Below, piece after piece: positions 4,053 to 50,811 of a DNA stretch of 64,000 nucleotides; the first letter of the stretch is position 1; the number at the start of each line of letters is the position of its first letter. The stretch comes from Candidatus Parvarchaeum acidiphilum ARMAN-4. GTDB taxonomy: Archaea; Nanobdellota; Nanobdellia; Parvarchaeales; Parvarchaeaceae. The stretch lies in assembly GCA_002412065.1 (NCBI GenBank), contig GG730040.1, positions 2,311 through 66,310 on the forward strand. Direction: 5' to 3'. Position numbers and translations under genes: made by a program. Below the pieces are notes generated by a model. That model was not told the origin of the DNA and ran no database searches. It saw only the letters and a program-made list of their open reading frames with translations.

Positions 4053-6344
4053 ATGGAAGATGATGACAAAATGGAAATAAGTTTGAAGGTTGCAGAAGCA
4101 CAGCAAGATGATATAGGACAAAATTTTGTAAGGATAGGAACGCCTTGGATGAAGCAGATAGGTGTCAGGCCGGGGGAGTTTGTAGAAATCGAAGGGAATA
4201 GAAAGACCGTTGCAAAAGTTGATAGAGCGCATCCTGGTGATTTAGGTTTGAATATAATCAGAATGGATGGTACTACAAGAAAGAATGCAAAAGCGGCCAT
4301 AGGTGAAAATGTAATAGTCAGGAAAGTAGAGGTTTATGAAGCTGATGTACTCAACCTTTCTCCTTTCTCTTCAAAATCTATACGCGGTGCAGAAAATGTG
4401 GTGGGTAGGTTACTTTTAGATAGAGCAATATCGAAGGGAGATATAATAACGCTTGGCAGTGGAGGCAGAAGCTCATTTGCTTCGTTTTTTGGAGATGATA
4501 ATGACATAATGCGTATATTTGAGAATACAGCATTTCCGTCTTTCCAATTCGGTTTCTCAGAGCTTCGTTTTTTGGTTACTTCTACATCACCAAAAGGATT
4601 TGTGATAATAACAGAAAATACTGACATAAACATATCGCCTGAACCTGTTAAACTTTCTGAGGAATCAAGAGTCAAGCATGTAAGCTATGAAGATGTAGGA
4701 GGTTTATCAGATGAAGTTTCAAAGATAAGGGAAATGGTCGAAATGCCATTGAAACACCCTGAGATATTTATGAGGTTGGGGATAACCCCTCCAAGAGGCG
4801 TTTTGCTTTACGGGCCTCCAGGAACAGGTAAAACTTTGCTTGCAAGGGCGGTTGCAGATGAAAGCGAAGCGCATTTCATAACAATAAACGGCCCAGAAGT
4901 AATGAGCAAGTGGGTTGGCGACGCAGAAAAGAAATTAAGAGAGATATTTGATGATGCAGAAAAGAACGCTCCGTCTATTATATTTATAGACGAAATAGAT
5001 GCAATAGCAACAAAAAGAGAGGAAAGCATAGGGGAAGTTGAACATAGAGTCGTATCGCAGCTTCTCACATTAATGGACGGTTTGAGAAGTAGAGGAAAGG
5101 TAATTGTAATAGCTGCTACCAATAGACCAAATGCAATAGACCCAGCATTGCGTAGACCTGGAAGATTTGACAGGGAAATAATGTTTGGAGTTCCAAATGA
5201 AAAAGGAAGACTGGAAATACTAAACATACACACTAGAAACATGCCTCTTGACAAGAATGTTAAACTTGAAGAGATTTCAAAGATAACGCACGGTTTTGTC
5301 GGTGCAGATATAGAGTCGCTTATAAAAGAAGCAGCAATGAATGTAATAAGAAGAAATATAAATGAGTTAAATGTTAAGGAGGGCGATAACATACCAAAGA
5401 CAGTTCTTGAAAAGCTTATAGTAACGATGGATGACTTCAGGGAAGCATTAAGGTTTGTAAGACCAAGTGCAATGCGTGAAGTTTTAGTTGAAAGACCAAG
5501 TGTTGGATGGGCAGATGTTGGTGGCTTAGAACAAGTTAAGGCGCAACTTAAAGAAGCAATAGACTGGCCTTTAAAACATCCAGACTCATTCAGAAGGGTA
5601 GGAATAACCCCGCCAAAAGGGATATTGCTTTACGGGCCTCCAGGAACAGGTAAAACTTTGCTTGCAAGAGCAGTCGCACATGAAACTGAATCGAATTTCA
5701 TTGCAATAAAAGGACCGGAGATATACAATAAATATGTTGGTGAAAGCGAGAAAAGGATAAGAGAAATATTTGATAAGGCAAGGCAGGTTTCTCCATCTAT
5801 CATTTTTATAGATGAGTTGGACAGTATAGCTTCTTCCAGGTCTAACTATGAAGGAAATAATGCAACCGAACAAGTAGTTAATCAATTACTTACAGAGTTG
5901 GATGGAATAGAACCTCTTAATAATGTAATTGTAATTGGAGCTACAAATAGGGTTGATAAGGTGGACTCTGCTATACTAAGAACTGGCAGATTTGATAATA
6001 TTGTGTTTGTTCCTCCTCCAGATGAAGATGGAAGGAAAGACATACTTAAGGTATATCTAAATAAGATGCCTATAGAAGGAGATAAAGAAGCTCTTATCGA
6101 TTACCTTATCAAAAAAACTGAAGGATACGTTGGCTCTGACTTGGAGAGGCTTTCTAAAGAAGCAGGTATGAACGCGCTTAGAAATAGTATCTCTGCAAGT
6201 AAAGTAACGAAAGAAGACTTTGAAAAGGCATTGGATCTAGTAAGGCCAAGCTTGACCACTGAAGACGCAAAGAAATACGAAGAAATGGCAAAGAAACTTT
6301 ACAGTAAAAAAGAGAAGGCGAAGGAGCTTAATTACTTCGGTTGA
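4053..6344 (+). CDS. cdc48: AAA+ ATPase Cdc48/VCP-like (N domain plus two AAA modules)
   Basis: Two Walker A sites ([15 protein letters not shown] twice), Walker B DEID/DELD and second-region-of-homology motifs. The N-terminal double-psi barrel region is present ([23 protein letters not shown]). Confidence 0.95.
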
Positions 6345-6345
6345 G

Positions 6346-7011
6346 ATGGATCACGAAGAAATATACAAGCTTATACTGAATGACGAACTTGGCTGGGAAC
6401 ACCTTATAACCACCATAATAAAGGACGAAGGAATGGATCCGATGGATATAGATCTTATAAAGATCGCCGACAGATTTGCTGCTTTAATCTCTAAAATAAA
6501 TCAAATAGATTTTAGATTTGGAGGCAAATTTGTTTATACTGCTGCGATACTCCTTAAAATGAAGTCTGATACCGTTGTAGATGAAATACTGGAATTAAAC
6601 GTCAAGAAACAGCATGAGGCCCAGCAAAGATACATAAAAGCCGTACCTTTTGATATAGCAGTAACATCAAAACTTCCTATTTTTAGAAGCAGGAAAATAA
6701 CCTTAACAGAATTAATAAATACCATAAGAGAAGCTATGCGCTATAACACAAAACAGAAGATAAACTTTGAATTAAAACTCAAGGAAGTAAAGATAGAAGA
6801 CAGAATAAGAACTCTTCTTTTAAAGTTGGCAAAGCTTTTCAATGCTAAGGAATTAGTATTATTTTCTGAGCTTGTAAATAAAAAGAACGATAGAAAAGAG
6901 ATAATCTACACCCTGCTTCCACTTTTGTTTATATCAAATATGAATAAAGTAGAGATATCGCAAAGCGAACCTTTTGAGGAGATATATATAAAGAGTAGGG
7001 TAAGCAGTTGA
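6346..7011 (+). CDS. scpA: segregation and condensation protein A (kleisin)
   Basis: DPMDIDLIKIADRFAALI...FRFGGKFVYTAAILLKMKSDTVV matches the ScpA N-terminal pattern. It is followed by scpB and lies near smc. Confidence 0.7.
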   Translation: MDHEEIYKLILNDELGWEHLITTIIKDEGMDPMDIDLIKIADRFAALISKINQIDFRFGGKFVYTAAILLKMKSDTVVDEILELNVKKQHEAQQRYIKAVPFDIAVTSKLPIFRSRKITLTELINTIREAMRYNTKQKINFELKLKEVKIEDRIRTLLLKLAKLFNAKELVLFSELVNKKNDRKEIIYTLLPLLFISNMNKVEISQSEPFEEIYIKSRVSS

Positions 7012-7070
7012 AATTTATTTGCTTGTGAACTTTTAAAATCAATAAATGCGACTATTAGTATAGGATTAAC

Positions 7071-7604
7071 ATGGTAAAGATAACTGAATATGTTGAGGCA
7101 CTTATATTCTCGTTCGGTGACGGTATAAGTCTTGAAGAGATTGTAAAAAGAACTAAATCTGACCCAATAATAATCAAAAAGGCAGTTAATGATCTAAATA
7201 AGTCTTATGAGGCTAGAAATAGCGCTTTTTACATATTAACCGAAGGGAATCTTTATAGGATGAGGTTGAGAAGTGATCTTTTGCACCTTGTACAAGATAA
7301 CTTAAGAACAGATATGAGTAAAGGAGTTCTAATGACCCTAAGTTTAATAGTGTTAAATGGGAAGATACCTCAAAGTGAACTTGTTAAAAAGAGAGGTAGC
7401 ATCTCATATCAGCATGTTAAGGAATTGCAGTCCAGGGGTTTAGTATCAGCAGCTATAGAAGATGGCAAAAAAATAATCAGAATTACACCTTTATTTTATG
7501 ACTATTTCGATGTCGATAAAAAAGAGTTCAAAGAAATAAAAGAAACTATCCAGGAAGAAGTAAAAAAAGAAGATGATAAGACTATAGAATATAAGGGGAA
7601 CTAA
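7071..7604 (+). CDS. scpB: segregation and condensation protein B
   Basis: EYVEALIFSFGDGISLEEIVK and a winged-helix repeat architecture fit ScpB. It is downstream of scpA. Confidence 0.7.
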   Translation: MVKITEYVEALIFSFGDGISLEEIVKRTKSDPIIIKKAVNDLNKSYEARNSAFYILTEGNLYRMRLRSDLLHLVQDNLRTDMSKGVLMTLSLIVLNGKIPQSELVKKRGSISYQHVKELQSRGLVSAAIEDGKKIIRITPLFYDYFDVDKKEFKEIKETIQEEVKKEDDKTIEYKGN

Positions 7605-8143
7605 AATACCACAACCTTACGGTTTATATTAATTTGAGGTTTTTCCTCCTTAACAGTGTTGTCTGGCTTTTTTGGCTCTTCAACGGCCTTTTTTTCAGTT
7701 TGTGGCACTTCTGCCGCCTTTACCTTTTCTATTGCTGATTTTATTGCATTTCCTATCGCAGTAAAATCACTTTCTTCCATTTTCTGTGGCTGCCAAACAT
7801 GATTTACAGTATCATCGTTATATCTGGGTATGAGGTGAATTAAAGCATGTGGAGTCACGCTGCCCTTTGTAAGCTCTTTGGTGTAAAGCATCTCTACGTT
7901 ATCTGGAGCTAGTGACAGGAGTATTGCGTATCCAACTGCTCTTGCAACACTTATGTACTGAAGAAACTCGTCCTGCGGCATTTCGTATATATTATTATAA
8001 TGTTTTTTTGGTATCATTATAACATGACCTTTGGAAGCAGGATTAATGTCTAAAACACCCATAACCATCTCATCTTCATATACCTCTTTTGAAGGCACTT
8101 TTTTGTTAGCTATCATGCAAAAAACGCATTTTTCCTCTTCCAT
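7601..8143 (-). CDS. HIT-family (histidine triad) hydrolase with Lys/Glu-rich C-terminal tail
   Basis: CVFCMIANKK...PASKGHVIMIPKKH...HALIHLIPR contains the HxHxHxx histidine triad. Confidence 0.8.
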   Translation of the reverse strand: MEEEKCVFCMIANKKVPSKEVYEDEMVMGVLDINPASKGHVIMIPKKHYNNIYEMPQDEFLQYISVARAVGYAILLSLAPDNVEMLYTKELTKGSVTPHALIHLIPRYNDDTVNHVWQPQKMEESDFTAIGNAIKSAIEKVKAAEVPQTEKKAVEEPKKPDNTVKEEKPQININRKVVVF

Positions 8144-8309
8144 AATTTTATTAAACGTTTAAAGTATTTATTCTTAAGTAAAATATTCTTGTGTTGCTTA
8201 TTATTTTCTTGTGCGATTCATTTATTGTTTATTCTAAAAATATACAATTATACGCTGTGAAAATTACGATTTATAAAAAGCTTTTAAATAACAAAAACTT
8301 TGTAGTATA

Positions 8310-8570
8310 ATGAAAGCAAAAAGCAACTTAAAGTTTGTCGACGAGGAGAAAAGAGCAGTCGATGCGGCGATCGGCCTTATTCTGTTCGGATTAGGAATAA
8401 CCCTTATAGTATTTGGCTTGGTTTCCATACTTTCGACAGCAGTTCTAAGTGGGTATTTCTACAAGACTGTTACAACTCCTCCATCGTCTTACATATACCC
8501 TTTATTTGAGGTAATAATAGGAATAGTAGTGTTTTCCTTCTCAATGTGGGTATTTAAGGCAAAAATATAA
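8310..8570 (+). CDS. small membrane protein (2 predicted TM helices)
   Basis: 86-aa ORF with two hydrophobic stretches and a TATA-like upstream region. Confidence 0.45.
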   Translation: MKAKSNLKFVDEEKRAVDAAIGLILFGLGITLIVFGLVSILSTAVLSGYFYKTVTTPPSSYIYPLFEVIIGIVVFSFSMWVFKAKI

Positions 8571-8669
8571 GCATTATTTTATTTTTTATTTTTTTTACTT
8601 TTATTCTTGGTGAAAAAAGGAAAGATTTATATACTTCTTTATTGCTAAGTATTATGTAGGTGATAAATT

Positions 8670-9467
8670 ATGGCATTATCGTTCAGTGAAGATTATATAG
8701 CAAAAATAAGGAGAATGTTTGGCTTAAACTTATATGAAGCAAAGGTTTGGCTGGCATTGCTTTCTCAAGGCAAGTCTACTTCAGGTAAATTAAGTGAAAT
8801 AGCCAATATACCCAAGTCAAGAGCATACGATATACTAGTTTCGCTTGAAAACGGAGGTTTTATAGTTAGGGATTTAAGCAAGCCTATAAGTTATAGGGCT
8901 ATTCCTCCTCAGGAATTGATAGAAAAACTAGAGGATAAGGCAAAGGAATCACTTGAACAGAAACTTGAAAAATTAAACAAGTTAAAAGGCAGTGCAATGT
9001 TAAATGACCTTCAAAATTTGTATGATAAAGGAATAAAATATGTTGATGAAGGCAAAGTTGCCAACTCATATCAAGGTTTAGATAATATATACTTCAGGAT
9101 AAAGAAAAGCATAAACTCCGCAAAGGGGGAAATTGTATTGATTACAACAGAACAGTCCTTAGAAAGCAAGATAAGTGCACTTGAAAGAGCACTTAAAAAG
9201 GCAAAAGCCAATAATGTGACAGTGCACGTTTATGCTCCAGTAAAGGATGTTAATGAGACATTAATGAATGAGATAAAACAGTTTGGCAAGTTAAACAAAA
9301 CAGACATTGACATAGGCAGATTTGTGATAGTAGACGGAAATGAGATATTTATATTCACTGAAAACGAGAGTGAAACTCATCCAAGTAACGAAGTAGTTCT
9401 TCACATAAAAGGCAAATATCTACCAGAGAAAATGAAAAAGCTGGTGTCCTCGCATGTTGTTAGCTAA
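8670..9467 (+). CDS. TrmB-family transcriptional regulator
   Basis: N-terminal wHTH LYEAKVWLALLSQGKSTSGKLSEIANIPKSRAYDILVSLENGGFIV is typical of TrmB-like sugar regulators. Confidence 0.7.
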   Translation: MALSFSEDYIAKIRRMFGLNLYEAKVWLALLSQGKSTSGKLSEIANIPKSRAYDILVSLENGGFIVRDLSKPISYRAIPPQELIEKLEDKAKESLEQKLEKLNKLKGSAMLNDLQNLYDKGIKYVDEGKVANSYQGLDNIYFRIKKSINSAKGEIVLITTEQSLESKISALERALKKAKANNVTVHVYAPVKDVNETLMNEIKQFGKLNKTDIDIGRFVIVDGNEIFIFTENESETHPSNEVVLHIKGKYLPEKMKKLVSSHVVS

Positions 9468-9529
9468 TGTCGTAAAAAGTCTGTGAATAGTTAGCATTTA
9501 ATATTTAGAATTTTTTTAGATAGTTAAAT

Positions 9530-12500
9530 ATGACTTATATAAAACAGGTAGAACTTGATAACTTTAAGTCCTTTGCAGGACATATAAAGTTTGATTTTGT
9601 AAACGGGTTCAACGCAATAGCTGGTGCAAATGGTTCAGGTAAAAGTAACTTAATTGATGCGCTTCTTTTTGTATTTGGAGGTTCCTCAAAAAAGGAGATG
9701 AGATCAGATATTCTTACAGATCTTATATTCAATGGAGGAAAAAATGGTAGGCAGGCAGAGCACGCCAAAGTCAATGTCATACTAGACAATTCAAAAAAAG
9801 AATTTCACGGAATTGAAGAAAATGAAGTTTCAATAAGCAGAAAGGTCGATAAAAACGGAAAAAGTGTTTACAGGGTAAATGGAAAGGCTTCTACCAGGGA
9901 AGAAGTCTTAAATGTATTATCTTTAGTAAAATTCAGGCAAGATGGATTTAACATAATCCCACAGGGAAGGATATTAGAAGTAGTTGGAACTTCTAATGAG
10001 GATAGGTTGAATCTTATAAATGATCTTTCCGGTATCAGTGTATTTGAAGATAAAAAAAGCAAAGCCATGAACGAAATGAGAAAAGTAGAGAGCAATATAT
10101 CAAAAATTGATACTGTTCTAAATGAAAAACGCAAATTAATGGCCCAACTAGAAAAAGACAAAACAAGAGCCATAGAATTTCAGCAGCTTAAAGAGAGGTA
10201 TTCGGCCCTACTTTCTAAGCAGTCAATGATAAAGAGAGATCTTGCATTTTCAGAGTTACAGTCTATACTTGAGCAACTCAAAGAAGCAGAGAAAGGAAAT
10301 GAAACACTAGCATCAGAAATTGAAAAGTTAAATGATCGTGTGAAAAAGATAAATGAAGAAATAAATGTTATAAACACAAAGGCCGAGGCAGAAGGAGAAA
10401 AAGAAATCCTTGATGCGGAAAACAAAGCAAAAGAATTTGATTCTGAGCTAGCCAGATTGAATGCGGTTCTTAAAAATGATAATGACCAATTGAATAATAT
10501 TATTACATCAATCGATGAATTATCAAAATCCCAAGAAGAGATTAAACAGCAGATAAAAACTGAAGAAAGCGAGAAAAAGAATCTAGAAGAAAAAATAGAT
10601 GCATTAAATTCAAAAAAGCTTCTCCTCATAGAAAGTGAATCGAAAACTCAGAATTATGTTAAAAATAGGAAGTATTAGAGAAGAAAATTTATGATATAGA
10701 TAAAAAAATATACGAGCAGAAAATTGCTCTGGCTAATTATCCAAAAATTGCAGAGATACAGGAGGCACTTACATCTTTTGATTCAAATAAAAATGAAATT
10801 GAGAAAACAATAAAGGAAATGACCTTATCATTTTCGGAGTTAAAGCCAGAAATTGACAAATTAAAAGCACAGGTAAAACGGGAAGCAGATGCAATATACC
10901 TACTCAGAGAGAATCTTTTTAATCAGAGGAATTCTTTGTCGTATCAGAACAAAGTAATTGAGATAGTTAATAGACTCAAAAAGGAAATAAATGGTATCTA
11001 TGGAACAGTCTCAGAGCTTTTCTCACTAAAAAATGAAGAGTACTCTATTCCAGTATTGAGATCAATAGGCAGGCGGTCAGAATTCATAGTTGTAGAAAAT
11101 GAAGAGGTAGCAAGGCAGTGTATAGATAAATTAAAATAAGACAAGCTGGGCTTTTACACATTTATACCTATAACTACAGTGAGAAGTAGTTATAACTTCA
11201 ATAAAATAGATGATACAAGAGTAATTGATTACATTATAAATCTTGTAAATTTCGAGCAAAATTTGCTTCGAGTAATGCAGTTTGTTTTTGGTGATACTAT
11301 ACTTGTAAGAGATTTTGATGCAGCAAAAGAACTTATAAGCAAATATAGGATGGTTTTACAGGACGGAACCGTGTTTGAGAGAACTGGGACTGTATCAGGA
11401 GGCCATTTCGATATACCAAATATCCTAAATGTTAATAAAAAGATAGCTGAGATAACTGCTGAGTTAGACACGCATTCAAAGCTAAAAGAAAAATACGATG
11501 AAGAAGTTATTGAGAAAGAATCAACTTTGAATTCTTTAATGACAGAAATTAAGGTAAGACAGAAAACTCTAGATGAAACAAAAATAAAAATTAATCAGCT
11601 TTTGAAAGAAAAATCAAAATTCACAGGCACAGAATCAGAAATTTCTGACAGCATAAGGGCTCTTGAAGGAGAAAAGACAAATTTAAGTTCAAAATTAGAA
11701 GAGCTTGAAAAAGACAAGCCAGAAAAAATAATAGACCACAAAAAAGAAATAGAAGCTTTGGATAGAGAAGTTAATGAGCTTCAGGTAAAGGTTGCTACTT
11801 CTGGCAACAAACTTTCTGCTGTTTTAATGTCAGAAATAAACAATCTTGAAAAAAGATTTTCGCAGCTTAATAAAGAAAGAGATAAATTTGAAAATGAAAT
11901 TGAAGAGGTACAAAATGCAATAAAAGATACTCAGGAAAACTATGATAAGGCTAGAAAAGAGCTTTCAGCTAGGTCAAATAATCTAAGCATGTTAAGAAAG
12001 AGGAGAAATGAGCTTTCAATTGAACTTGGAACGCTTCAAAAACAACATGACGATATATATAATCGCTCACAGAAGATAGTTTCAGATTTAAATGCTTTAA
12101 AGGTAAAAGAGGCCGGTTCAAAGGTTAAATTTGAAACCGCGGAAGAAGAATATAATAAGTATAAGGTTGATGGGGTAAAAATTGAGGAAGGAGAAACAAT
12201 TGAAAAAATAACAAAAGAGCTAAATCAATTAAACTCAAAGATAAATTCCTTTGGTCCTATAAATGAACTTGCGCTGAAAACATTTATGGAAACTCAGCAG
12301 CAATATGAGGAATTTAACGTAAAGCTAGAGAAATTAAATGAGGAAAAAGGAAGGATACTTGCAGTAATATCCGAGATAGAGCAGAAAAAATTAGAATCTT
12401 TTATGAAAACTTTATCGGATATAAACTCCATTTTTACAAAGGTTTTCAATTCAATTACAAAAGGAAAAGCAGAGCTTGTGCCAGAAGATCCTAATAATGT

Positions 12501-12855
12501 GTTTTCATCAGGTTTGGATATTGCGGTTGAGCTTCCAAATAAACGTGTAAGAAATATAAGAGGGTTAAGCGGAGGAGAACTTTCAGTGCTTGCTATATCT
12601 TTGATAATGGCATTGTCAAAATACACAGACGCAGTTTTCTATGTTCTAGATGAGGTGGATGCAGCTTTGGATGCTATCAATGCAGGAAATTTCTCTGCAC
12701 TTGTCAAGGCATATTCTGATTCATCACAGTTTATAATAATCTCTCACAATGAAACGACTCTTATAAATGCAGATGTAATATACGGTGTAACGATGAATGA
12801 CCAAGGGATAAGTAGGGTTGTACGTGTAAAAATGCCAGAGCAGAGCAATCAATAG
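9530..12855 (+). pseudogene. smc: SMC chromosome segregation ATPase disrupted into three ORFs (9530..10678, 10669/10819..11139, 11140/11179..12855) by a frameshift near 10660-10680 and an in-frame TAA at 11137-11139. May be an assembly error rather than a true pseudogene
   Basis: N-terminal head with Walker A GANGSGKSN. A hinge fragment ends ...ARQCIDKLK, then a TAA, then DKLGFYTFIPITT, which is the GRATFLPL-like hinge motif in the same frame. The C-terminal head has the signature LSGGELSVLAISLIMAL and Walker B FYVLDEVDAALD. The frame-1 reading is open from 10669 once the frame is shifted at the A5 run 10661-10665. Confidence 0.85.
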
Positions 12856-24333: not shown

Positions 24334-25265
24334 ATGAGTCCAGGAGAGTTTTGGGTTTTTGTAATTGGTATACTAGCATTTATTGTGCTTTTTCTCTTGA
24401 GCATTTTTATCCCAAGCTTATTTTATGCGTTTATTCTCATTTTTATAATATTGTTAGCAGTAATCTTCTTTATCACTTTTGTAAAAAAATACAGCCAGTT
24501 TGAAAGAGGCATAATATTTAGACTGGGAAAGTTTAATCGTATAGCTGGTCCTGGCTGGGCGATAGTATTACCTTTTTTCGAAGAGGATACAAAAAAGTAG
24601 ATGTAAGAGTTAAAATGATGGAAATAACTTCATCAGACATATTTACTTCTGATGACCTGAAAATTTCCCTAGAAGGTACTATATATTATCAGATTGTGGA
24701 CCCTGAAAAGGCGACTTTGCAGATCGACAATTATGGGCAAGGGTTGTCAAACTTAGTTCAGTCCGCAATAAGGAATGCAATAGCTTCTTTAACTATGAGG
24801 CAGGTTTTTGGCAGCCTTGACAGGCTAAATGACATACTTGCAGATGCAATAAGACATATGACCTGGAAGTGGGGTATAGATGTACCTTCTGTTCAGGTTA
24901 GATCAGTTTCTCCTTCAAATGAGGTTATACAAGCTATGCAGCAGCCGGAGATTGCGGCTAATTTGTTGCAGGCCCAGCGGTTTAAGGCTGAAGCACAGAA
25001 AATAGTTATGGAAGCTATAGGAGAAGGCAGCAAGTCACTGGATGATAAATCCATAGTGTATCTCTATCTTCAGGCCCTTAAGCAGATAGGTGAATCTAGC
25101 TCTTCAAAGATAGTACTACCAATGCAGTTTATGCAAAACGCAGGAAGCATGCTTGGCGGGATAGCAGGTCTTTCTACAACTGCGCTTGCTTCTTTAGGTG
25201 GACAGGAAAATGTTCAGAATGTTATAGATAAAATAAAAGAGAAGATATCTCAAGTAAATTCTTAA
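24334..25265 (+). pseudogene. SPFH/band-7 (stomatin/prohibitin-like) membrane protein split by a frameshift at an A6 run (24591-24596) into ORFs 24334..24600 and 24615..25265. Possible sequencing artefact
   Basis: N-terminal TM plus GIIFRLGKFNRIAGPGWAIVLPFFEE continues in the other frame as KKVDVRVKMMEITSSDIFTSDDLKISLEGTIYYQIVDPEKA, the SPFH core. The reading is uninterrupted when one A is removed. Confidence 0.8.
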
Positions 25266-25321
25266 TTTAATTGATCTAATATTCTATATATCTCTTGTAA
25301 GTTCTCTATTACAAAATCAGG

Positions 25322-25975
25322 TTAACTTTTAGAGATTTTATGTTTTTCTTCGTTGTATTTGTCAAAAAGCACAGTCTTCATACCTGCCGCCTTTGCATTG
25401 TCTATGTCTATTTCTGGAGTATCACCTACAAATAATACCTCATCTATTTTAAGTTTCAGCATTGCAGCTGTTTTTTTAAAAGCATTAGGGTCATGTTTAC
25501 TTTCCAGTATATTATTTCTTGCAATTACCTTTACATCAAACTTTCCATTGTAGTCAAATTTATCTAGAGTTGTTTTTTTAAGGCCAGGGTAAAGACCTTC
25601 TCCCGTTAATATTCCTATCTTTAAATTCCTCTTTTTAAGTCCATTCAATACCTCGTCTACTCCCTCTGTAAACTCCATCCGGTTAATAAGGTGGCTCTCA
25701 AAAATTTCTGAATATATATCTATTTGTTTTGCGTCTATGTCTAAACCACTTTCTTCTGCAAATATCTCATAGAAAAGTCGTTTGTATCTTTTAAGAGGGT
25801 CTACACGATCAAACTTTTTTTGGACTTTTTTCTTTATACTATCAAAGGTTTTCAAATCCATTGTTTTAAAATCTTCTTGCATCTTATTTAAAATTAATTT
25901 ATTAGCGTTGTCTATTGTTTTTGAAGAATTTATCAAGGTGTTATCAAAATCGAATATTATTCCTTTTATTTTCAT
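25322..25975 (-). CDS. HAD-superfamily hydrolase
   Basis: IKGIIFDFDNTLINS (motif I DxDxT) and VLFVGDTPEIDIDNAKAAGMKTVLF (motif IV). Confidence 0.8.
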   Translation of the reverse strand: MKIKGIIFDFDNTLINSSKTIDNANKLILNKMQEDFKTMDLKTFDSIKKKVQKKFDRVDPLKRYKRLFYEIFAEESGLDIDAKQIDIYSEIFESHLINRMEFTEGVDEVLNGLKKRNLKIGILTGEGLYPGLKKTTLDKFDYNGKFDVKVIARNNILESKHDPNAFKKTAAMLKLKIDEVLFVGDTPEIDIDNAKAAGMKTVLFDKYNEEKHKISKS

Positions 25976-26811: not shown

Positions 26812-27561
26812 ATGGATGTAAAATTTATAGATGCACATGCACACATAAGCGATAATTCATTGTTAAGTACTAGAGAGGAGTTTCTAGAAAAGATTTCAGA
26901 TTCTTATATTATACTAAACTCTGGCGAAAATAAGGAAGATAGCAAAAGAATATTAAATGATAGCAAAAATTACAAATTCTTACTGCCTTGTATAGGGTTA
27001 CACCCAAATAAAATAGCATATATGAGTTATGACAAGGCTCAAGAGGAGTTTAATTATATATTAGAAAACATAGACCAGTTTTTTGCAGTTTCTGAAATCG
27101 GTTTGGATTATAAAGGGAAAGATATATACCAAAACGAGCAGGAAAAAGAATTCCTTTACAAGATACTAGAATTATCTGAGGAGAAAAATAAGGTTTGTAT
27201 AATTCATAGTAGAAAGGCAATAGATGATATTTTTGACGCTGTTTCTAGCTTTAAATTAAAGGTAATATTACATAACTTTGAAGGTAACCTAAGACACCTA
27301 AATAAGGCGGATGAATTAGGAATAAACATCAGCATATCCACTGGTTTTATGAAGTTCAAAAAAGACAATATAATTAAAAATGTAAACTTGAGTAGGTTGT
27401 CTACCGAAACTGATTCTCCTGAGTTAAGTCCCGATAATAAGCTAAATACTCCTTTGAATATACAAAAACTATTAAATTATATATCTAGTATAAAAAAGAT
27501 GGGAGTAGAGGATATAAAATCAGCCGTATATAAAAATTTTATGGAGCTATTCTATGATTGA
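26812..27561 (+). CDS. tatD: TatD-family metal-dependent hydrolase
   Basis: FIDAHAHISD, GLHP and EIGLDY motifs of the TatD/amidohydrolase fold. Confidence 0.8.
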   Translation: MDVKFIDAHAHISDNSLLSTREEFLEKISDSYIILNSGENKEDSKRILNDSKNYKFLLPCIGLHPNKIAYMSYDKAQEEFNYILENIDQFFAVSEIGLDYKGKDIYQNEQEKEFLYKILELSEEKNKVCIIHSRKAIDDIFDAVSSFKLKVILHNFEGNLRHLNKADELGINISISTGFMKFKKDNIIKNVNLSRLSTETDSPELSPDNKLNTPLNIQKLLNYISSIKKMGVEDIKSAVYKNFMELFYD

Positions 27562-28467
27562 ATATGTTTTTTTGGGCACAAGCTCAGCTTTCCCAACGGT
27601 AAAAAGAAATCATCCAGGAGTTTATTTAATGATAAACGGGGACAGAATACTTTTAGATTGTGGCGAAGGAATTCAAAGACAAGTAAGAAAAGCAGGGCTG
27701 AGCCCATCTATAGATTATATTTTTATAACTCATTGGCATGGAGATCATTCTCTTGGGTTGGGGGGTATAATCCAAAGCTTAAACATGATGAAAGCAGTAA
27801 AACACTAAAAATATTTGGCCCTCTCAACACAGCTAATAGTGTAAAAAATATTATGCTTGCTTATAAATTTTATAATACTTTAGATTTAAAAGTAATTTCA
27901 TTGAATGCTCCTAAAGAAAAGATAATATTAACGAATAATAATTATGAAGTCTCTGCAATCAATGTAAAGCATTCTGTTAAATGTATTGCTTATAAAATAA
28001 AAGAAAAAGATGTAAGGAATATCTATATAGATAAAATTGCTAAAAAAGGGATAAAACCTGGAAAATTCCTAAGCAAGCTTAAAGAAGGAAAGGATATTGT
28101 GTATAATGGCATTAAATTAAAGTATAAAGAACTTACCTACGTTAAGAGAGGAAAGTCTATTGCTTATGTTACTGATTTAAGGTATAGTCGGGAGATTATT
28201 CCTTTTATAAAAGGAGTGGATACATTGATATTAGAAAGCACGTTTGGTGAGGAATTCAATAAATCTTACGAATTTTTTCATCTTAATATCAAAGAAGCAA
28301 TGTTGCTAGCTAAAAGTTCTGGGGCTAAAGAAGTCCAGTTTGTACATACAAGTCAAAGATATGAAAATGATAATTCAATGGTTAAAAGTGCCGCAGCAAT
28401 TTATTCTAAACTAAAATGCAATTTTAAGTACTCTTTTCCAGATGATTTCGATAAATTTGTAGTATAA
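27554..28467 (+). pseudogene. rnz: ribonuclease Z (tRNA 3' processing metallo-beta-lactamase) split by a frameshift near 27780-27800 into ORFs 27554..27808 and 27658..28467. Possible sequencing artefact
   Basis: LDCGEGIQRQVRKAGLSPSIDYIFITHWHGDHSLGLGGIIQSLNMM carries the HxHxDH motif. The other frame continues SSKTLKIFGPLNTANSVKNI... with the later beta-lactamase motifs. Confidence 0.8.
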
Positions 28468-35843: not shown

Positions 35844-36923
35844 ATGGAGCTTTTTAATGAAGGTCAGGTTATATTCTATGCAGAAGATAAGCAGCTTAAA
35901 AAGGCAGGAGTATTCTTTAATCCTAAAAGAGAATTTGATAGAGATCTTAATGTTCTTGTAGTGTCATCTTTAATAAGTAATAAATCAGCGGGTTTAGAAC
36001 TATTTTCTGGTAGTGGGATAAGGGGTTTAAGGCTGTGTATAGAAAGTAATAAGTTTAACAAATTTACATTTAATGACATAAAATCATATGATACAGTAAA
36101 AAGAAATCTCGAACTTAATAAGAAAAGATTATTAAGCACTGATAAAACTGTAAATAATACCGATGCGACTTTATTTGAATCAAGCAGTAAATACGATTAT
36201 ATAGACATAGATCCTTTTGGCTCTCCAGTCTTTTACTTAGATTCTGCATTGAATTTATTAAAGAGAGGAGGTGTACTTGCAGTTAGCGCTACTGATACAG
36301 CGGCACTTCTTGGTAGCGCCCAAAAAGCCTGTCTAAGAAAATACGGTTCAGTATCACCTCAAACTTCATACAGCAATGAATTAGGGATAAGGATTCTTAT
36401 AAAGAAAGTAATCGAATATGGATTAAATCATTCTATAAATCTTGTACCTATCCTATTTAATTTTGAAGGCAATTTTATTCGTGTTTACTTTAAGGCAGAT
36501 CCTTCAAAAATTAAACCAAGCATTGGGTATGCTTATCAGTGTTATAAGTGTCCTAATAGGGTAACAAAAGCATTATTGAAGTGTGATTATTGTGGTGGCA
36601 GGATGCATAAAATTGGTCCAATGTGGCTTGGAAGCTTGCACAATGAAAAATATTTAAATAAAATGATTTCATCCTTGAAAAAGAACAGGATGAAATTTTC
36701 AGATAAAGCTTCGCTCAAACTTATGAATTATCTAAATGCAGTTTTGAGCGAATTGCCAGTATTCTCTTATTATACTACAAGTGAGATATCCTCCTTTTTA
36801 AAGCAACCAGAAATAAAGATATCAAAATTTAAGAACAGAACAGTTCTATCCCCAAAAGGTTTTAGAACAAAAAATAGTTTCTCCAATCTTATAGCTACTT
36901 TGGATTCGAAACAATCAGAATAG
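35844..36923 (+). CDS. trm1: tRNA (guanine26-N2)-dimethyltransferase Trm1
   Basis: IDIDPFGSPVFYLDSALNLLKRGGVLAVSATD plus a C-terminal Cys cluster. Confidence 0.8.
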   Translation: MELFNEGQVIFYAEDKQLKKAGVFFNPKREFDRDLNVLVVSSLISNKSAGLELFSGSGIRGLRLCIESNKFNKFTFNDIKSYDTVKRNLELNKKRLLSTDKTVNNTDATLFESSSKYDYIDIDPFGSPVFYLDSALNLLKRGGVLAVSATDTAALLGSAQKACLRKYGSVSPQTSYSNELGIRILIKKVIEYGLNHSINLVPILFNFEGNFIRVYFKADPSKIKPSIGYAYQCYKCPNRVTKALLKCDYCGGRMHKIGPMWLGSLHNEKYLNKMISSLKKNRMKFSDKASLKLMNYLNAVLSELPVFSYYTTSEISSFLKQPEIKISKFKNRTVLSPKGFRTKNSFSNLIATLDSKQSE

Positions 36924-37166
36924 CTTTATTTCTTGATTCATTGCTTGTCCAGGCAATCCTCTTCTAAATCTGATAACTACTCTTCCTTAATCACCGTGCG
37001 CCCTTACAATCACGCCCTTTATAGACGACTTTGAGAATGCAATTTCCACCTTTTTCCCGATGAATTTTTTGGCTTCTTCTCTGCTATTTACCTTTTCTAT
37101 GCTGGCTATAGCCTGATTAACTTTTTGTGTCTTTCTTCCTCTTCTATAAGATAATACTTTTGCCAT
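36915..37166 (-). pseudogene. rpl35ae: ribosomal protein eL33 (L35Ae) with in-frame TAA at 36987-36989. Possible substitution error or genuine pseudogene
   Basis: MAKVLSYRRGRKTQKVNQAIASIEKVNSREEAKKFIGKKVEIAFSKSSIKGVIVRAHGD, then a stop, then GRVVIRFRRGLPGQAMNQEIKLF. The stop sits exactly where the conserved HGN-S-GVVRAKF motif continues. Confidence 0.75.
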
Positions 37167-38416: not shown

Positions 38417-40147
38417 ATGAACGTAAGAGAAATAAGTCAAATAGCAAAAAAATTTGCAGAGCCATCTACAAATGTTGGTTATCTAGAGCAATGGATAAGG
38501 GAATTAGAAGCCAGAGCCTCTAGTAGCGATTCTCATTATAGAGGAGAAATAGACTTTAGGTACGCTTCTCAGGAAGAATTACCGGATCCGGGGTTTGTTG
38601 GAAATGCAGCAGGTTATCATTTCACTAAGGATATACTAAAAAGATACCATTTTCAGCCAGAGTATTACTCTGTAATGCAGATGTTCGCAGCAATAGGTTA
38701 TAAACCACTTAGACTTGCAGAATCAGTAGATCCATCAGCTTTATCAAGCTTGATGAGTATGGCATTTGAAAAGCGAAAAAATCTAGAAGACAGGGTTATG
38801 CAGCTTTTAGGAACTATAAATACAATCTTAAAATCTCTCGTTTCCACAATTAATTCGCTTACAGAGCTTGATAGAAATCTTTATTTTTATGATGAATTAA
38901 AAGACCATGATAAAGAGAAATCGGAAGCAGCAGAATTGGCATTAAAAAGGATATTCCTTGATGTTGTTGACGCTAGAAAAGGGGGAGCAAGTCTTTCGGC
39001 ACTTTCAAGATCTCCTACACAAAGTCAGGGTGGCCCGGGTTTCATAGATATAATGTCAGTTTTCTATCAGGTAAAAAGCCTTAAGGATATTCAGCAGATT
39101 GATAGAAATGAACAGTACAAAAATATACTTAAGAACAGGTATATAGAATATGAAAAATGGAAGGAGATAAACGGAAATGAACTTCGACGCAGGAAATCGC
39201 TTTATTTAGAGTATCTTAAGAGCCAGATGGGTTCATTTAATCTATATGTGGATTGGTGTTCTAGTTATCTTTCAATTCTTTCAAAAATGGGCTGGAATAC
39301 GATTACTAAGGCAAAGGATTACTTTAATAAGGCTTCAAAGCCGGATATATTCGAAAATCAAAGCTTTTCCGTTACGGCGTTTGCATATAAATCAATTTAT
39401 GCAGGAGAGTACACAGCGGAATATGTAAAGCTGTTTAAAAGTAAAGGCCCGGAAATCCCTATACATGTAGAACCTAAAAGTCTGGCAGGCAATCTTAGCG
39501 CAAGAGGGTACGAGGAGCATAAAAGGTCCTTTATTTATGACAGGATAAAAAAATATGGGCCTCTTGTTATAGCAGGTGTAAAGCTACAGATGGATTTTAA
39601 AGAAAAACCAAGTAAGGAGCCAATACAACCGCCTTACGAAGGGACTATTTACTTTAATCTATTTCCGTATTGTTTTACTCCCGAAGAATTTTATCTTTAT
39701 AAGAAAGCTCAAATATCAAAGATACAGAAGACTGTATTCGCTTCTGTTGACCAGACCGTTTTTAATTCTTTAAGCGTCATAAAAAAGGATCTAGACAAGT
39801 ACGTTAAAGAAGCCGAGGAAGAAGAAAAAGCAAAGTCAAAGGAGAAAAAGCCGCAAAAGGATTACGCTTTCTTAGATATTTATAGGGCCTTTAAAGATGA
39901 TATCTCAGGCGTTTCAAAGTCTTTTTCAAGTATTGCTCCCTCAGAAAAGCATAAAACCAGATTTGACGAAGACCAGGCAGAGATATATGAAATGCTTGTT
40001 AATTCCAAACGTTTTGGTAGTATAAGTATTAAAAGAGCGCTTGAAATGGGTTTATTTATCTCAAATAGCGATTCAACATATATATACGATGAGCTTAAGA
40101 GAAGAGTTGGTCTGCTTAATTGGAAGGCCCCTTTTTCGGTGAATTAA
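38417..40147 (+). CDS. large hypothetical protein (576 aa), no recognisable domain. First gene of a cluster of small pilin-like genes
   Basis: Clean ORF with no P-loop, TM helix or signal peptide. Followed directly by 4 tiny membrane/pilin-like ORFs. Confidence 0.55.
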   Translation: MNVREISQIAKKFAEPSTNVGYLEQWIRELEARASSSDSHYRGEIDFRYASQEELPDPGFVGNAAGYHFTKDILKRYHFQPEYYSVMQMFAAIGYKPLRLAESVDPSALSSLMSMAFEKRKNLEDRVMQLLGTINTILKSLVSTINSLTELDRNLYFYDELKDHDKEKSEAAELALKRIFLDVVDARKGGASLSALSRSPTQSQGGPGFIDIMSVFYQVKSLKDIQQIDRNEQYKNILKNRYIEYEKWKEINGNELRRRKSLYLEYLKSQMGSFNLYVDWCSSYLSILSKMGWNTITKAKDYFNKASKPDIFENQSFSVTAFAYKSIYAGEYTAEYVKLFKSKGPEIPIHVEPKSLAGNLSARGYEEHKRSFIYDRIKKYGPLVIAGVKLQMDFKEKPSKEPIQPPYEGTIYFNLFPYCFTPEEFYLYKKAQISKIQKTVFASVDQTVFNSLSVIKKDLDKYVKEAEEEEKAKSKEKKPQKDYAFLDIYRAFKDDISGVSKSFSSIAPSEKHKTRFDEDQAEIYEMLVNSKRFGSISIKRALEMGLFISNSDSTYIYDELKRRVGLLNWKAPFSVN

Positions 40148-40149
40148 TT

Positions 40150-40323
40150 ATGAACAGCAAAGGACAAATGCCAACAACTGAGATTATAGCAATAATACTT
40201 GCCATAATAGTACTTTCAGCAGGTATTGTAATAGCAATTCTATTTAAAGGGGCTGGAGCGACAATCTCTAAGGATATGACTAATGTTTTTTCCTTCAGCT
40301 GGCTTTACGGTAAGGGCATATGA
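40150..40323 (+). CDS. small pilin-like protein (class III signal peptide)
   Basis: Starting at the internal Met: MNSKG|QMPTTEIIAIILAIIVLSAGIVIAILF. Confidence 0.5.
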   Translation: MNSKGQMPTTEIIAIILAIIVLSAGIVIAILFKGAGATISKDMTNVFSFSWLYGKGI

Positions 40324-40490
40324 GCGAAAAAGGAGTTGTAAGCGGTATTTTTCTTTATATTATATTGATAATAATCGGTATATTACTAATAATCTTTTTT
40401 CTAGAGATCTTTACACCTTACAAGTTTACAGATCTTTTTAAGGCGTTTATATCAAAGTCAAACACCTTGAATGTGAGTAATTATGATTAA
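40320..40490 (+). CDS. small pilin-like/membrane protein (56 aa)
   Basis: MSEKG|VVSGIFLYIILIIIGILLIIFFLE. The ATG overlaps the previous stop (ATGA). Absent from the ORF track because it is under 60 aa. Confidence 0.45.
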   Translation: MSEKGVVSGIFLYIILIIIGILLIIFFLEIFTPYKFTDLFKAFISKSNTLNVSNYD

Positions 40491-40632
40491 TATGAATAAA
40501 AAAGGGGTAGAAAGCTACATTTTGCTTGTTATAATAACATTAATAGTACTGATTCTAATAGTTATATTCTACCTTTTTCTTTTCTCTCCAGGTACACTGC
40601 ATAAACTCATTCCTTCGGTGCCAATTATATAA
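40483..40632 (+). CDS. small pilin-like/membrane protein (49 aa)
   Basis: MINMNKKG|VESYILLVIITLIVLILIVIFYLF. Confidence 0.45.
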   Translation: MINMNKKGVESYILLVIITLIVLILIVIFYLFLFSPGTLHKLIPSVPII

Positions 40633-40633
40633 C

Positions 40634-40795
40634 ATGGAAGCAATTTGGTTTTATGTAATTGCTATTATCCTAGGGATAACTTTAGTTATCGTTTATATCC
40701 TGTTTGTAGGGCCTTCTGCATTGTCAAAAGATATCTCCGGGTTTTTTACAAGTATAAGCTCATCGATAACATCGGGATTTAAGAACGCATATTAA
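40634..40795 (+). CDS. small membrane protein (53 aa)
   Basis: MEAIWFYVIAIILGITLVIVYILFVG is a single TM helix followed by a Ser-rich tail. Confidence 0.4.
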   Translation: MEAIWFYVIAIILGITLVIVYILFVGPSALSKDISGFFTSISSSITSGFKNAY

Positions 40796-40827
40796 CATTT
40801 TTATACTTTCGATAGCTATTAGGGATT

Positions 40828-41403
40828 ATGATTACTTATAGTGAATTTCTTAGAATAAGAAGACAGGAACAGGAAGACAGCAGAACTCTTACAAAGTTCA
40901 CGGATGAAATGCTAGAAGAGATGAAAGAGTACATTGCAATAAATAAAAACTCACTGGAAGAAGCAAAGAAAATGAATGATGAGAAGAAGACTGAAGAAAT
41001 ATCTACACAGATAAAAAATGCAATATCTACCCTAGAACAAATAATAAATTTAAGGTTGCTTAAAATTGCAAGCATGTCAATATTAGATGCGGATAGTGAG
41101 CAGGCAAAAGCAAACATGCTTTCAAAGGAGATAATCCTATTTGATAATCTACTTGTTTTGTCTAAAGAACATAAAGCTGGAATAATAAACGAATTAAAAT
41201 TTATAGAGCCAAAAAAGCTGCAGAAAGTAGAAAGCGAGGATAGTGATGGCGAAAAAGTGGTAATAAAAATTCTTTCGGATATACCTAAATTTGTATGGAG
41301 AAATGATAAGTCCTATGGCCCATTCAGTTTTCCAAATATAATTGAAATAGACAAGGATGTAGCACAGATATTGATAAAAAGCGGTAAAGCCGAGAGTGCA
41401 TAA
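40828..41403 (+). CDS. GINS subunit (Gins51/Gins15-like)
   Basis: Helical N-terminal A-domain, then a beta-rich C-terminal B-domain (VVIKILSDIPKFVWRNDKSYGPFSFPNIIEIDKDVAQILIKSGKAE). Confidence 0.55.
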   Translation: MITYSEFLRIRRQEQEDSRTLTKFTDEMLEEMKEYIAINKNSLEEAKKMNDEKKTEEISTQIKNAISTLEQIINLRLLKIASMSILDADSEQAKANMLSKEIILFDNLLVLSKEHKAGIINELKFIEPKKLQKVESEDSDGEKVVIKILSDIPKFVWRNDKSYGPFSFPNIIEIDKDVAQILIKSGKAESA

Positions 41404-49445: not shown

Positions 49446-49926
49446 TTATAGAAAGGCATATGTACTTTAATATATCATTATAAGCAGTTTGATTGTTTGC
49501 GAATCCGCCAACCTTATAGTACTTTCCATTAAATATGATCATCGGAACGCGGTTTATCCCTACCTGATTAAATATTGAAACTGCTGAATCTGGCAAGTTA
49601 TCAGTTGTATTGCTATTGTATGCAGATATATTAAATTTCCAAGCACAAAAATACCCACTGTAAAATGTATTGTTTCCCCATAAACCAAAAAGGGAAGTTA
49701 CATTTTGAAATGAATTCACAGTATCTGTGCAAGTTCTGCAATTATCAGCATAATAAATAATTAATGAAGGCTCATTCTGTGAGCATAGCCCTGACATGTT
49801 TAAGTTAGTTTCATGAAATGAATAAAAGTTGTTTAATGAATAAGTTTGGTAATAAAAGAATATCGCTATTATTAAAAGCACAACGATTATAACAGTATAC
49901 AAATAATATCTAAATCTAGTTAGCAT
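49420..49926 (-). CDS. membrane-anchored thioredoxin-fold protein with CxxC (extracytoplasmic thiol-disulfide oxidoreductase candidate)
   Basis: N-terminal TM (YLYTVIIVVLLIIAIFFYY), then LIIYYADNCRTCTD (CxxC) and RVPMIIFNGKYY (thioredoxin-fold cis-Pro region). Several N-x-S/T sequons. Confidence 0.6.
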   Translation of the reverse strand: MLTRFRYYLYTVIIVVLLIIAIFFYYQTYSLNNFYSFHETNLNMSGLCSQNEPSLIIYYADNCRTCTDTVNSFQNVTSLFGLWGNNTFYSGYFCAWKFNISAYNSNTTDNLPDSAVSIFNQVGINRVPMIIFNGKYYKVGGFANNQTAYNDILKYICLSINESMPQCS

Positions 49927-50215
49927 AAAATGAAATGTTTAATTTTTCTATTTCGTTTTGGCTGCAGCTGTTTCCTTTATTGACTATGCATATGTTAGTG
50001 TAATTGCCTAAATCCTTATAGACATAACTGTAGGCGGGGGATGAAAAATAAGAAGGATCAACTATAAGATTGAATATTTTTGAATAGCTACAGGAAGTTG
50101 CATTTATAAGTCTATAAACTTGAAATTGAAAAGGGCTGTATATCCCAGTTTCATTGTTATAATTGAAGATATGCCCGTTTCCCTTAAAAACAATGTTTAT
50201 AGTCATCTGTTTCAT
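49916..50215 (-). CDS. hypothetical small protein (99 aa), Cys- and N-sequon-containing
   Basis: ORF in the operon with flanking secreted proteins. No TM. Confidence 0.3.
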   Translation of the reverse strand: MKQMTINIVFKGNGHIFNYNNETGIYSPFQFQVYRLINATSCSYSKIFNLIVDPSYFSSPAYSYVYKDLGNYTNICIVNKGNSCSQNEIEKLNISFYAN

Positions 50216-50240
50216 TTTTAATAAGGAGTTTATTATATCA

Positions 50241-50811
50241 CTATAATTTGTGCTCCCTTTTGAATAAATTTAAGTCATATTTCAGTGGATTAACGATCGA
50301 ATAATTCTGTAATCCAGATGCGGCTATCTCAGAATAATATGCCTTCATCTGTGAATAAGTGATATTAAAAAGTTGTATTATCTCAGTAGAGTTAAGTTTA
50401 TTATCTATAAATTGGTAAAGCTGGCTTTCTGCAGCAGTGCAGTTTGTGTAATTTTCAACACTGCACATTGATACAAGAGAGATATCTCTTAATATATCGC
50501 TGTATTCTTTTTGTACTTCTGACGAATTTATGGGTATTGTCGGAGCAAGAGGTTCCATTTCATAAGTACACTCATTAAACGATTGAGTTGTTTGATAATC
50601 CCCCATAGAAATAGTATAAGTCTTTGTCCGATAGCATACTTAAATTTATATTGTAACTGGAAATAAAATCCCCAAGTTTTATGCTGTTTGAGAGATTTTG
50701 AGGCTTGTTTATAAAAGTCGGCTTAAAGGGGTAAACATACAATATTGCAGTAAAAGCTGCAAGTAATATAACCAATACAATTAGTACTTTTATTACGCCA
50801 TTACTTTCCAT
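50241..50811 (-). CDS. membrane-anchored small secreted protein, probably one gene split at a G5 run (50581-50585) into ORFs 50575..50811 and 50241..50606
   Basis: The upstream ORF gives a TM anchor (VIKVLIVLVILLAAFTAILYVY) ending ...YYFYGGLSNNSIV*. Removing one G fuses it to YQTTQSFNECTYEMEP..., a 4-Cys N-sequon-rich domain. Confidence 0.4.

Follow-up and report, generated by a model that had tools for sequence, protein, structure and literature searches.

Two interruptions of the smc gene in the Candidatus Parvarchaeum acidiphilum ARMAN-4 record are very probably errors of the draft consensus

In the deposited sequence of Candidatus Parvarchaeum acidiphilum ARMAN-4 the smc gene is interrupted twice, once by a frameshift and once by an in-frame stop codon, which raises the question of whether the organism is losing its SMC protein or whether the record is wrong. 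A sequence-only reading of this DNA identified the gene and put forward both explanations, decay and assembly error, as having different meanings for chromosome segregation in this organism. The DNA analysed here, referred to as the window, is a stretch of 64,000 nucleotides of contig GG730040.1, and all positions are counted from its first letter. The features of the gene are as follows.

9530-12855, + strand: smc gene, encoding an archaeal-type SMC of 1108 amino acids after the changes private to this record are reverted; two interruptions in the ARMAN-4 record
9530-10678, + strand: first piece, an ORF of 382 amino acids covering the head lobe with Walker A and the ascending coiled coil, stop codon TAG at 10676-10678
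10664-10669, + strand: frameshift site, AATAGG in the window versus AATAAGG in six of the six other assemblies that cover it, one A short
10669-11139, + strand: second piece, in frame +2, with coiled coil and the first half of the hinge, ending at TAA 11137-11139
11137-11139, + strand: in-frame TAA; AAA (Lys), within an A7 run, in all near-identical assemblies
11140-12855, + strand: third piece, with the remainder of the hinge, followed by the descending coiled coil and the C-terminal head (LSGGE, Walker B and D-loop)
10159, + strand: private substitution A>C, Glu to Asp, identified by comparison with the other assemblies
12823, + strand: private substitution A>C, Ser to Arg, identified by the same comparison

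Both interruptions are present in the sequence as they had been described. Frame 0 is open from the ATG at 9530 to the TAG at 10676-10678. The sole frame in which smc continues is frame +2, which has a TAG of its own at 10666-10668, is open from 10669 to the TAA at 11137-11139 and, after this TAA, reads from 11140 to the stop codon at 12853-12855. The TAA is immediately 5′ of the codons for DKLGFYTFIPI and inside the hinge, as the sequence-only reading had placed it, and the Pfam SMC_hinge profile (PF06470) is divided exactly at this codon, with profile positions 2-49 on the second piece and 53-115 on the third, both matches exceeding the cut-off.

The frame break had been located near 10661-10680 and ascribed to a run of five A residues (10661-10665); the break is real but it is not in this run. 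A change in the length of the run cannot restore the smc frame, because the frame-2 TAG at 10666-10668 is situated between the run and the downstream opening, and an indel inside the run is ruled out by the same intervening codon. The deleted base is instead an A at 10666/10667, which converts AATAAGG to AATAGG.

The first ATG of the middle frame is at 10819, and the first start after the TAA is the GTG at 11179, which is downstream of the conserved hinge motif GFYTFIPI. From this GTG to 12855 the third piece encodes 558 residues, all of which (558/558) are identical to GenBank entry EEZ93179.1, an ARMAN-4 protein annotated as 'SMC domain protein' (ADCE01), and the match includes the private Ser-to-Arg change. 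The stop codon of smc overlaps the 3′ end of a convergent gene (− strand) for a KsgA/Dim1-type rRNA dimethylase by 7 bp (12849-12855), an overlap that is common to all near-identical assemblies.

The three pieces together have the features of one SMC protein. Pfam SMC_N matches the first piece (E = 2.7e-32) and the C-terminal part of the same profile matches the third, with SMC_hinge between them, and so alignment of the three fragments to SMC profiles, proposed earlier as a check, shows them to be colinear. The motifs, read on the consensus-corrected protein, are in canonical order: Walker A GANGSGKS (residue 32), the hinge motif GFYTFIPI, the signature LSGGE (residue 1013), Walker B VFYVLDE (residue 1036) and the D-loop DEVDAALD (residue 1041). 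The earlier statement that all SMC landmarks are present and colinear is thus confirmed both by the Pfam matches over the three pieces and by the motif scan. A 99% identical SMC (P0001) aligns with the NCBIfam model TIGR02169 from residue 3 to 1101, covering model positions 1-1164 of 1165 (E = 2.8e-198); its score is 661 bits against a curated cut-off of 729, and this is the best-scoring family by far.

The genes for the two SMC partners are found upstream.

6346-7011, + strand: scpA (kleisin), 221 amino acids, intact; Pfam SMC_ScpA 54 bits against a cut-off of 24.6
7071-7604, + strand: scpB, 177 amino acids, intact; Pfam SMC_ScpB 86 bits against a cut-off of 27.4

Both are intact, as had been stated, but they do not adjoin smc, being about 2 kb upstream with three genes between: an HIT gene on the minus strand, a gene for a small membrane protein of 86 amino acids and trmB. 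The order cdc48-scpA-scpB-HIT-x-trmB-smc-ksgA (x being the small membrane protein) is kept in the near-identical assemblies, and across the SMC-ScpAB locus the alignment with relatives at about 77-86% DNA identity is colinear. This is a standard archaeal condensin locus of the SMC-ScpAB kind, and Candidatus Parvarchaeum acidiphilum ARMAN-4 has the complete, conventional set of these proteins. By homology, the 1108-residue SMC would dimerise through its hinge, with its ATPase heads bridged by ScpA and ScpB, and its predicted activity would be ATP-dependent DNA loop extrusion or compaction of the chromosome.

Sixteen stretches from independent assemblies were gathered by exact look-up of the intact neighbouring proteins. 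They come from ENA megahit assemblies, the Logan assembly of SRR5036985, JGI metagenomes (33000387xx) and the NCBI MAGs DAIT01, DASV01 and DAICMP01, and are 99.0-99.94% identical to the window in BLAST alignments. All five of the independent assemblies that are gap-free over the locus (99.6-99.94% identical) encode SMC in a single intact gene of 1108 codons. In a sixth (L014) SMC is fragmented by scaffold gaps, yet the A and the AAA are present at the two lesion sites. The smc lesions are therefore found in none of the six other assemblies that cover both sites, a comparison that, as these assemblies represent other samples, strictly shows the lesions to be absent from sister populations and not from the cells sampled for the record. 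A changed number of A residues at 10661-10665 together with a sense codon at 11137 had been named in advance as the marks of an assembly artefact; in substance this is what every other assembly has, with the extra A at 10667, outside the run.

The wider comparison gives the same picture. The codon at 11137-11139 is AAG, AAT or ACT in more distant Parvarchaeum relatives. A protein search with the stitched SMC returned the SMCs of Candidatus Parvarchaeum and Parvarchaeota (1106-1108 amino acids, 69-99% identity); nearly all relatives at 69-93% identity have a full-length SMC of 1106-1108 amino acids, and there is no break at either site among the full-length relatives listed (30-99% identity). 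When the private changes are reverted, the ARMAN-4 SMC is identical over 1108 residues to a protein (P0121) found on 15 contigs of the NCBI, JGI, Logan and ENA collections. By exact look-up in the gene-position index, the 382-residue product of the first piece corresponds to no other gene on record, and the 558-residue third piece is also absent from that index but present in the protein cluster table as EEZ93179.1. Two exact scans of JGI metagenome contigs, one with a pattern spanning both lesion sites with either allele allowed and the other with a conserved 37-mer between the sites, gave no match and are evidence neither way.

Two of the comparison assemblies have irregularities of their own in smc. 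In L014, a UBA MAG of the same strain (GCA_002505075.1, DAUI01000006.1, locus 6861-10185), SMC is called as pieces of 141, 366, 79 and 438 amino acids, because the scaffold has short gaps filled with NN in which bases are missing; L2 and a second neighbouring gene show the same damage. The fragmentation in L014 is a second, independent assembly artefact at smc. In L011 (ENA ERZ27237493), a segment of about 110 bp in the SMC coiled coil (locus 4893-5004, window 12164-12275) has nine differences, among them a CAC-for-AAA run, and most of them alter the protein; recombination over this tract or a local fault of the assembly may be the cause.

Since other assemblies of the same strain carry the intact gene, the breaks are best read as artefacts, and the differences private to the window as a whole bear on the choice between error and decay. 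These were counted over the 55,619 bp of the window in which each base is covered by at least three other assemblies. Of the 48 private differences, 42 are substitutions and six are one-base indels. In the nearest assemblies (L016/L018, L026 and L027) no private differences were counted, so that all of the divergence is on the window's branch, and outside smc the window's allele at a private site is found in none of the 3-6 assemblies that cover it.

The spectrum of these differences is distinct from that of the population. The private substitutions comprise 11 transitions and 31 transversions, versus 204 and 60 among the control singletons, drawn from the 16 other assemblies (Fisher p = 2e-10). 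Silent, missense and nonsense changes number 10, 27 and 3, respectively, versus 184, 68 and 0 for the control singletons (p = 9e-9). A silent share of 25% is about the expectation for random base changes, by estimate rather than by computation. On the + strand, 24 of the changes produce a C and six a G (binomial p = 0.0014), irrespective of gene orientation, and this bias towards C opposes the strand's own excess of G over C. All three private nonsense changes are AAA>TAA. The private sites are also clustered: 15 of the 47 gaps between them are 30 bp or shorter, versus 1.2 expected; clusters of mixed indels and substitutions are found at 50255-50257 and 50566-50576; and the sites lie in patches of about 0.5-4 kb with clean stretches of 3-7 kb between. 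The majority interrupt or shorten homopolymer runs. Within cdc48, at 4350-4375, there are four private substitutions in 26 bp (G>C, T>C, G>C and T>A), three of them protein-altering, and this cluster looks like a poor-quality read end taken into the consensus. Being transversion-rich, mostly protein-altering, strand-biased, clustered and homopolymer-associated, the private changes look unlike natural variation.

The damage is not confined to smc. Eight disabling lesions are found in six of the 68 window genes, smc included, and three to six other assemblies carry intact copies of the five others, listed below.

24334-25265, + strand: Band_7/stomatin-family gene, 310 amino acids elsewhere; frameshift by a private one-base deletion at 24586
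25262-25975, − strand: HAD-family hydrolase gene, 237 amino acids elsewhere; shortened by a private AAA>TAA at 25324
27554-28467, + strand: metallo-beta-lactamase-fold gene, 304 amino acids elsewhere; frameshift by a private one-base deletion at 27790 (AAAA to AAA)
36915-37166, − strand: ribosomal protein L35Ae gene, 83 amino acids elsewhere; private AAA>TAA at 36989, giving a stop at codon 60
49916-50811, − strand: gene for a 297-residue protein with no assigned function; two private one-base insertions (50257 and 50576) inside substitution clusters

No gene of the window is longer than smc, and with 0.53 lesions expected in it (P of two or more about 0.10) two hits are unremarkable; the lesions are not specific to SMC. 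Disabling errors are found at a rate of about one per 7 kb of the window. The interval 40147-40828, between the gene for a 576-residue protein without a Pfam match and the GINS gene, contains only very small ORFs (49-67 amino acids in the gene calls of other assemblies).

Both smc lesions are private to the window and belong to the 48-difference set with its error-like spectrum, which favours error over decay, and we consider it very probable that the two interruptions are sequence artefacts of the draft consensus and not part of the organism's DNA. The window record is the 2009/2010 Sanger composite draft of ARMAN-4, a composite genome of 0.81 Mb derived from the sample 'UBA filtrate', for which Sanger reads of clones of about 3 kb were assembled with phred/phrap/consed at an estimated depth of about 8x (PMC2745766). 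The comparison with the other assemblies points to base calling or assembly as the most likely cause: an A would have been dropped from the consensus at 10666/10667, the TAA would be an A-to-T miscall at 11137 that turned AAA into TAA, and the true gene would encode one SMC of 1108 residues. A mean depth of 8x normally gives a cleaner Sanger consensus, and so this explanation needs locally thin or poor-quality stretches. Also counted against it are the bias towards C and the restriction of the nonsense changes to AAA>TAA, which are without a mechanistic account.

Real and recent decay is the alternative that survives best, although we judge it improbable. On this view the sampled ARMAN-4 clone came from a mutator lineage, or one that had passed through a bottleneck, in which mutations built up without selection and SMC and five further genes were genuinely lost. 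The lesions are, after all, present in the deposited sequence, the private changes look wholly unselected (25% silent), as in a lineage without effective selection, and most of the broken genes may well be dispensable. Set against this are the branch asymmetry of 48 to 0 relative to the sister assemblies and the absence of the lesions from every other assembly. Spontaneous mutation in prokaryotes is biased to transitions and towards A/T. The private spectrum is transversion-rich and directed towards G/C, whereas among variants of the population itself transitions outnumber transversions 204 to 60. The 24:6 excess of C over G on one strand whatever the gene direction, the tight clusters in which indels and substitutions lie within 3-30 bp of each other, and the truncation of a ribosomal protein gene (L35Ae) also argue against decay. 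For the deposited sequence to be correct, the ARMAN-4 of Richmond Mine would have to be a hypermutating, selection-free clone with a strand-asymmetric A/T-to-C spectrum in which SMC, a ribosomal protein and four other genes had just been inactivated within 56 kb, with the sister populations intact, and this we regard as very unlikely. Of the two explanations offered by the sequence-only reading, consensus error is therefore the one supported and decay is left without support; the implied consequence for chromosome segregation does not follow from lesions that are assigned to draft errors.

Programmed recoding, in which ribosomes would slip by −1 near 10669-10675 and the TAA would be read through or reassigned to give a full-length SMC, accounts for the perfect colinearity of the pieces with a single event per break, but it is hardly credible. 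Neither site is conserved, the relatives having the extra A and a sense codon (AAA, AAG, AAT or ACT). A programmed frameshift is ruled out by this and by the sequence of the only segment open in both frames, GAAGTAT at 10669-10675, in which there is no slippery X XXY YYZ heptamer; reassignment of TAA is ruled out by its use as the terminator of 46 of the 68 window genes. We give next to no credence to a naturally split SMC whose two or three polypeptides reassemble, since, although at least the C-terminal piece is annotated in GenBank as a separate 'SMC domain protein', the middle frame has its first ATG only at 10819, the GTG available after the TAA lies past GFYTFIPI, and the full-length orthologues listed (30-99% identity) are unbroken at both sites, so that a functional split is contradicted. 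Searches of the literature on pseudogenes or split genes of ARMAN organisms turned up nothing that bears on SMC.

The interruptions of smc, very probably consensus errors and not a real feature of the organism, are of value chiefly as a warning about a reference record. A scan of the species-representative collection gave no match to this SMC above 93% identity, despite the many assemblies of the strain, which suggests that the ARMAN-4 draft is itself the species-representative record, one outside the collection scanned. Its SMC was deposited in separate pieces named 'SMC domain protein', EEZ93179.1 being one. Surveys of gene presence, absence or splitting in DPANN archaea that use this record might list SMC as missing or split by mistake, and the same risk applies to the Band_7 protein, the HAD hydrolase, the MBL-fold enzyme, L35Ae and one gene of unknown function. 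With about one disabling error per 7 kb in the window, pseudogene counts from the ARMAN-4 assembly should not be read as genome decay.

Compared with known systems, the locus resembles SMC-ScpAB condensin with an archaeal-type SMC (TIGR02169, SMC_prok_A) in its canonical motif order, its end-to-end alignment with the model and the presence of scpA and scpB nearby. It departs from the SMC_prok_A model in that the protein, at about 1108 residues, is slightly shorter than the 1165 model positions, scores below the curated cut-off (661 versus 729 bits) and is encoded by a gene that is broken in one record. A frameshift and a nonsense codon in one gene, with more broken genes nearby, are also features of true pseudogenes in reduced or decaying genomes; unlike these, the ARMAN-4 lesions are shared with no sister assembly, their spectrum differs from that of the population, and there is zero divergence outside the anomalous sites. 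The closer likeness is to the false pseudogenes of low-coverage draft and metagenome assemblies, in which, as in the comparison made here, the lesions are private to one record, homopolymer-linked, clustered, unselected and strand-biased, and affect several genes.
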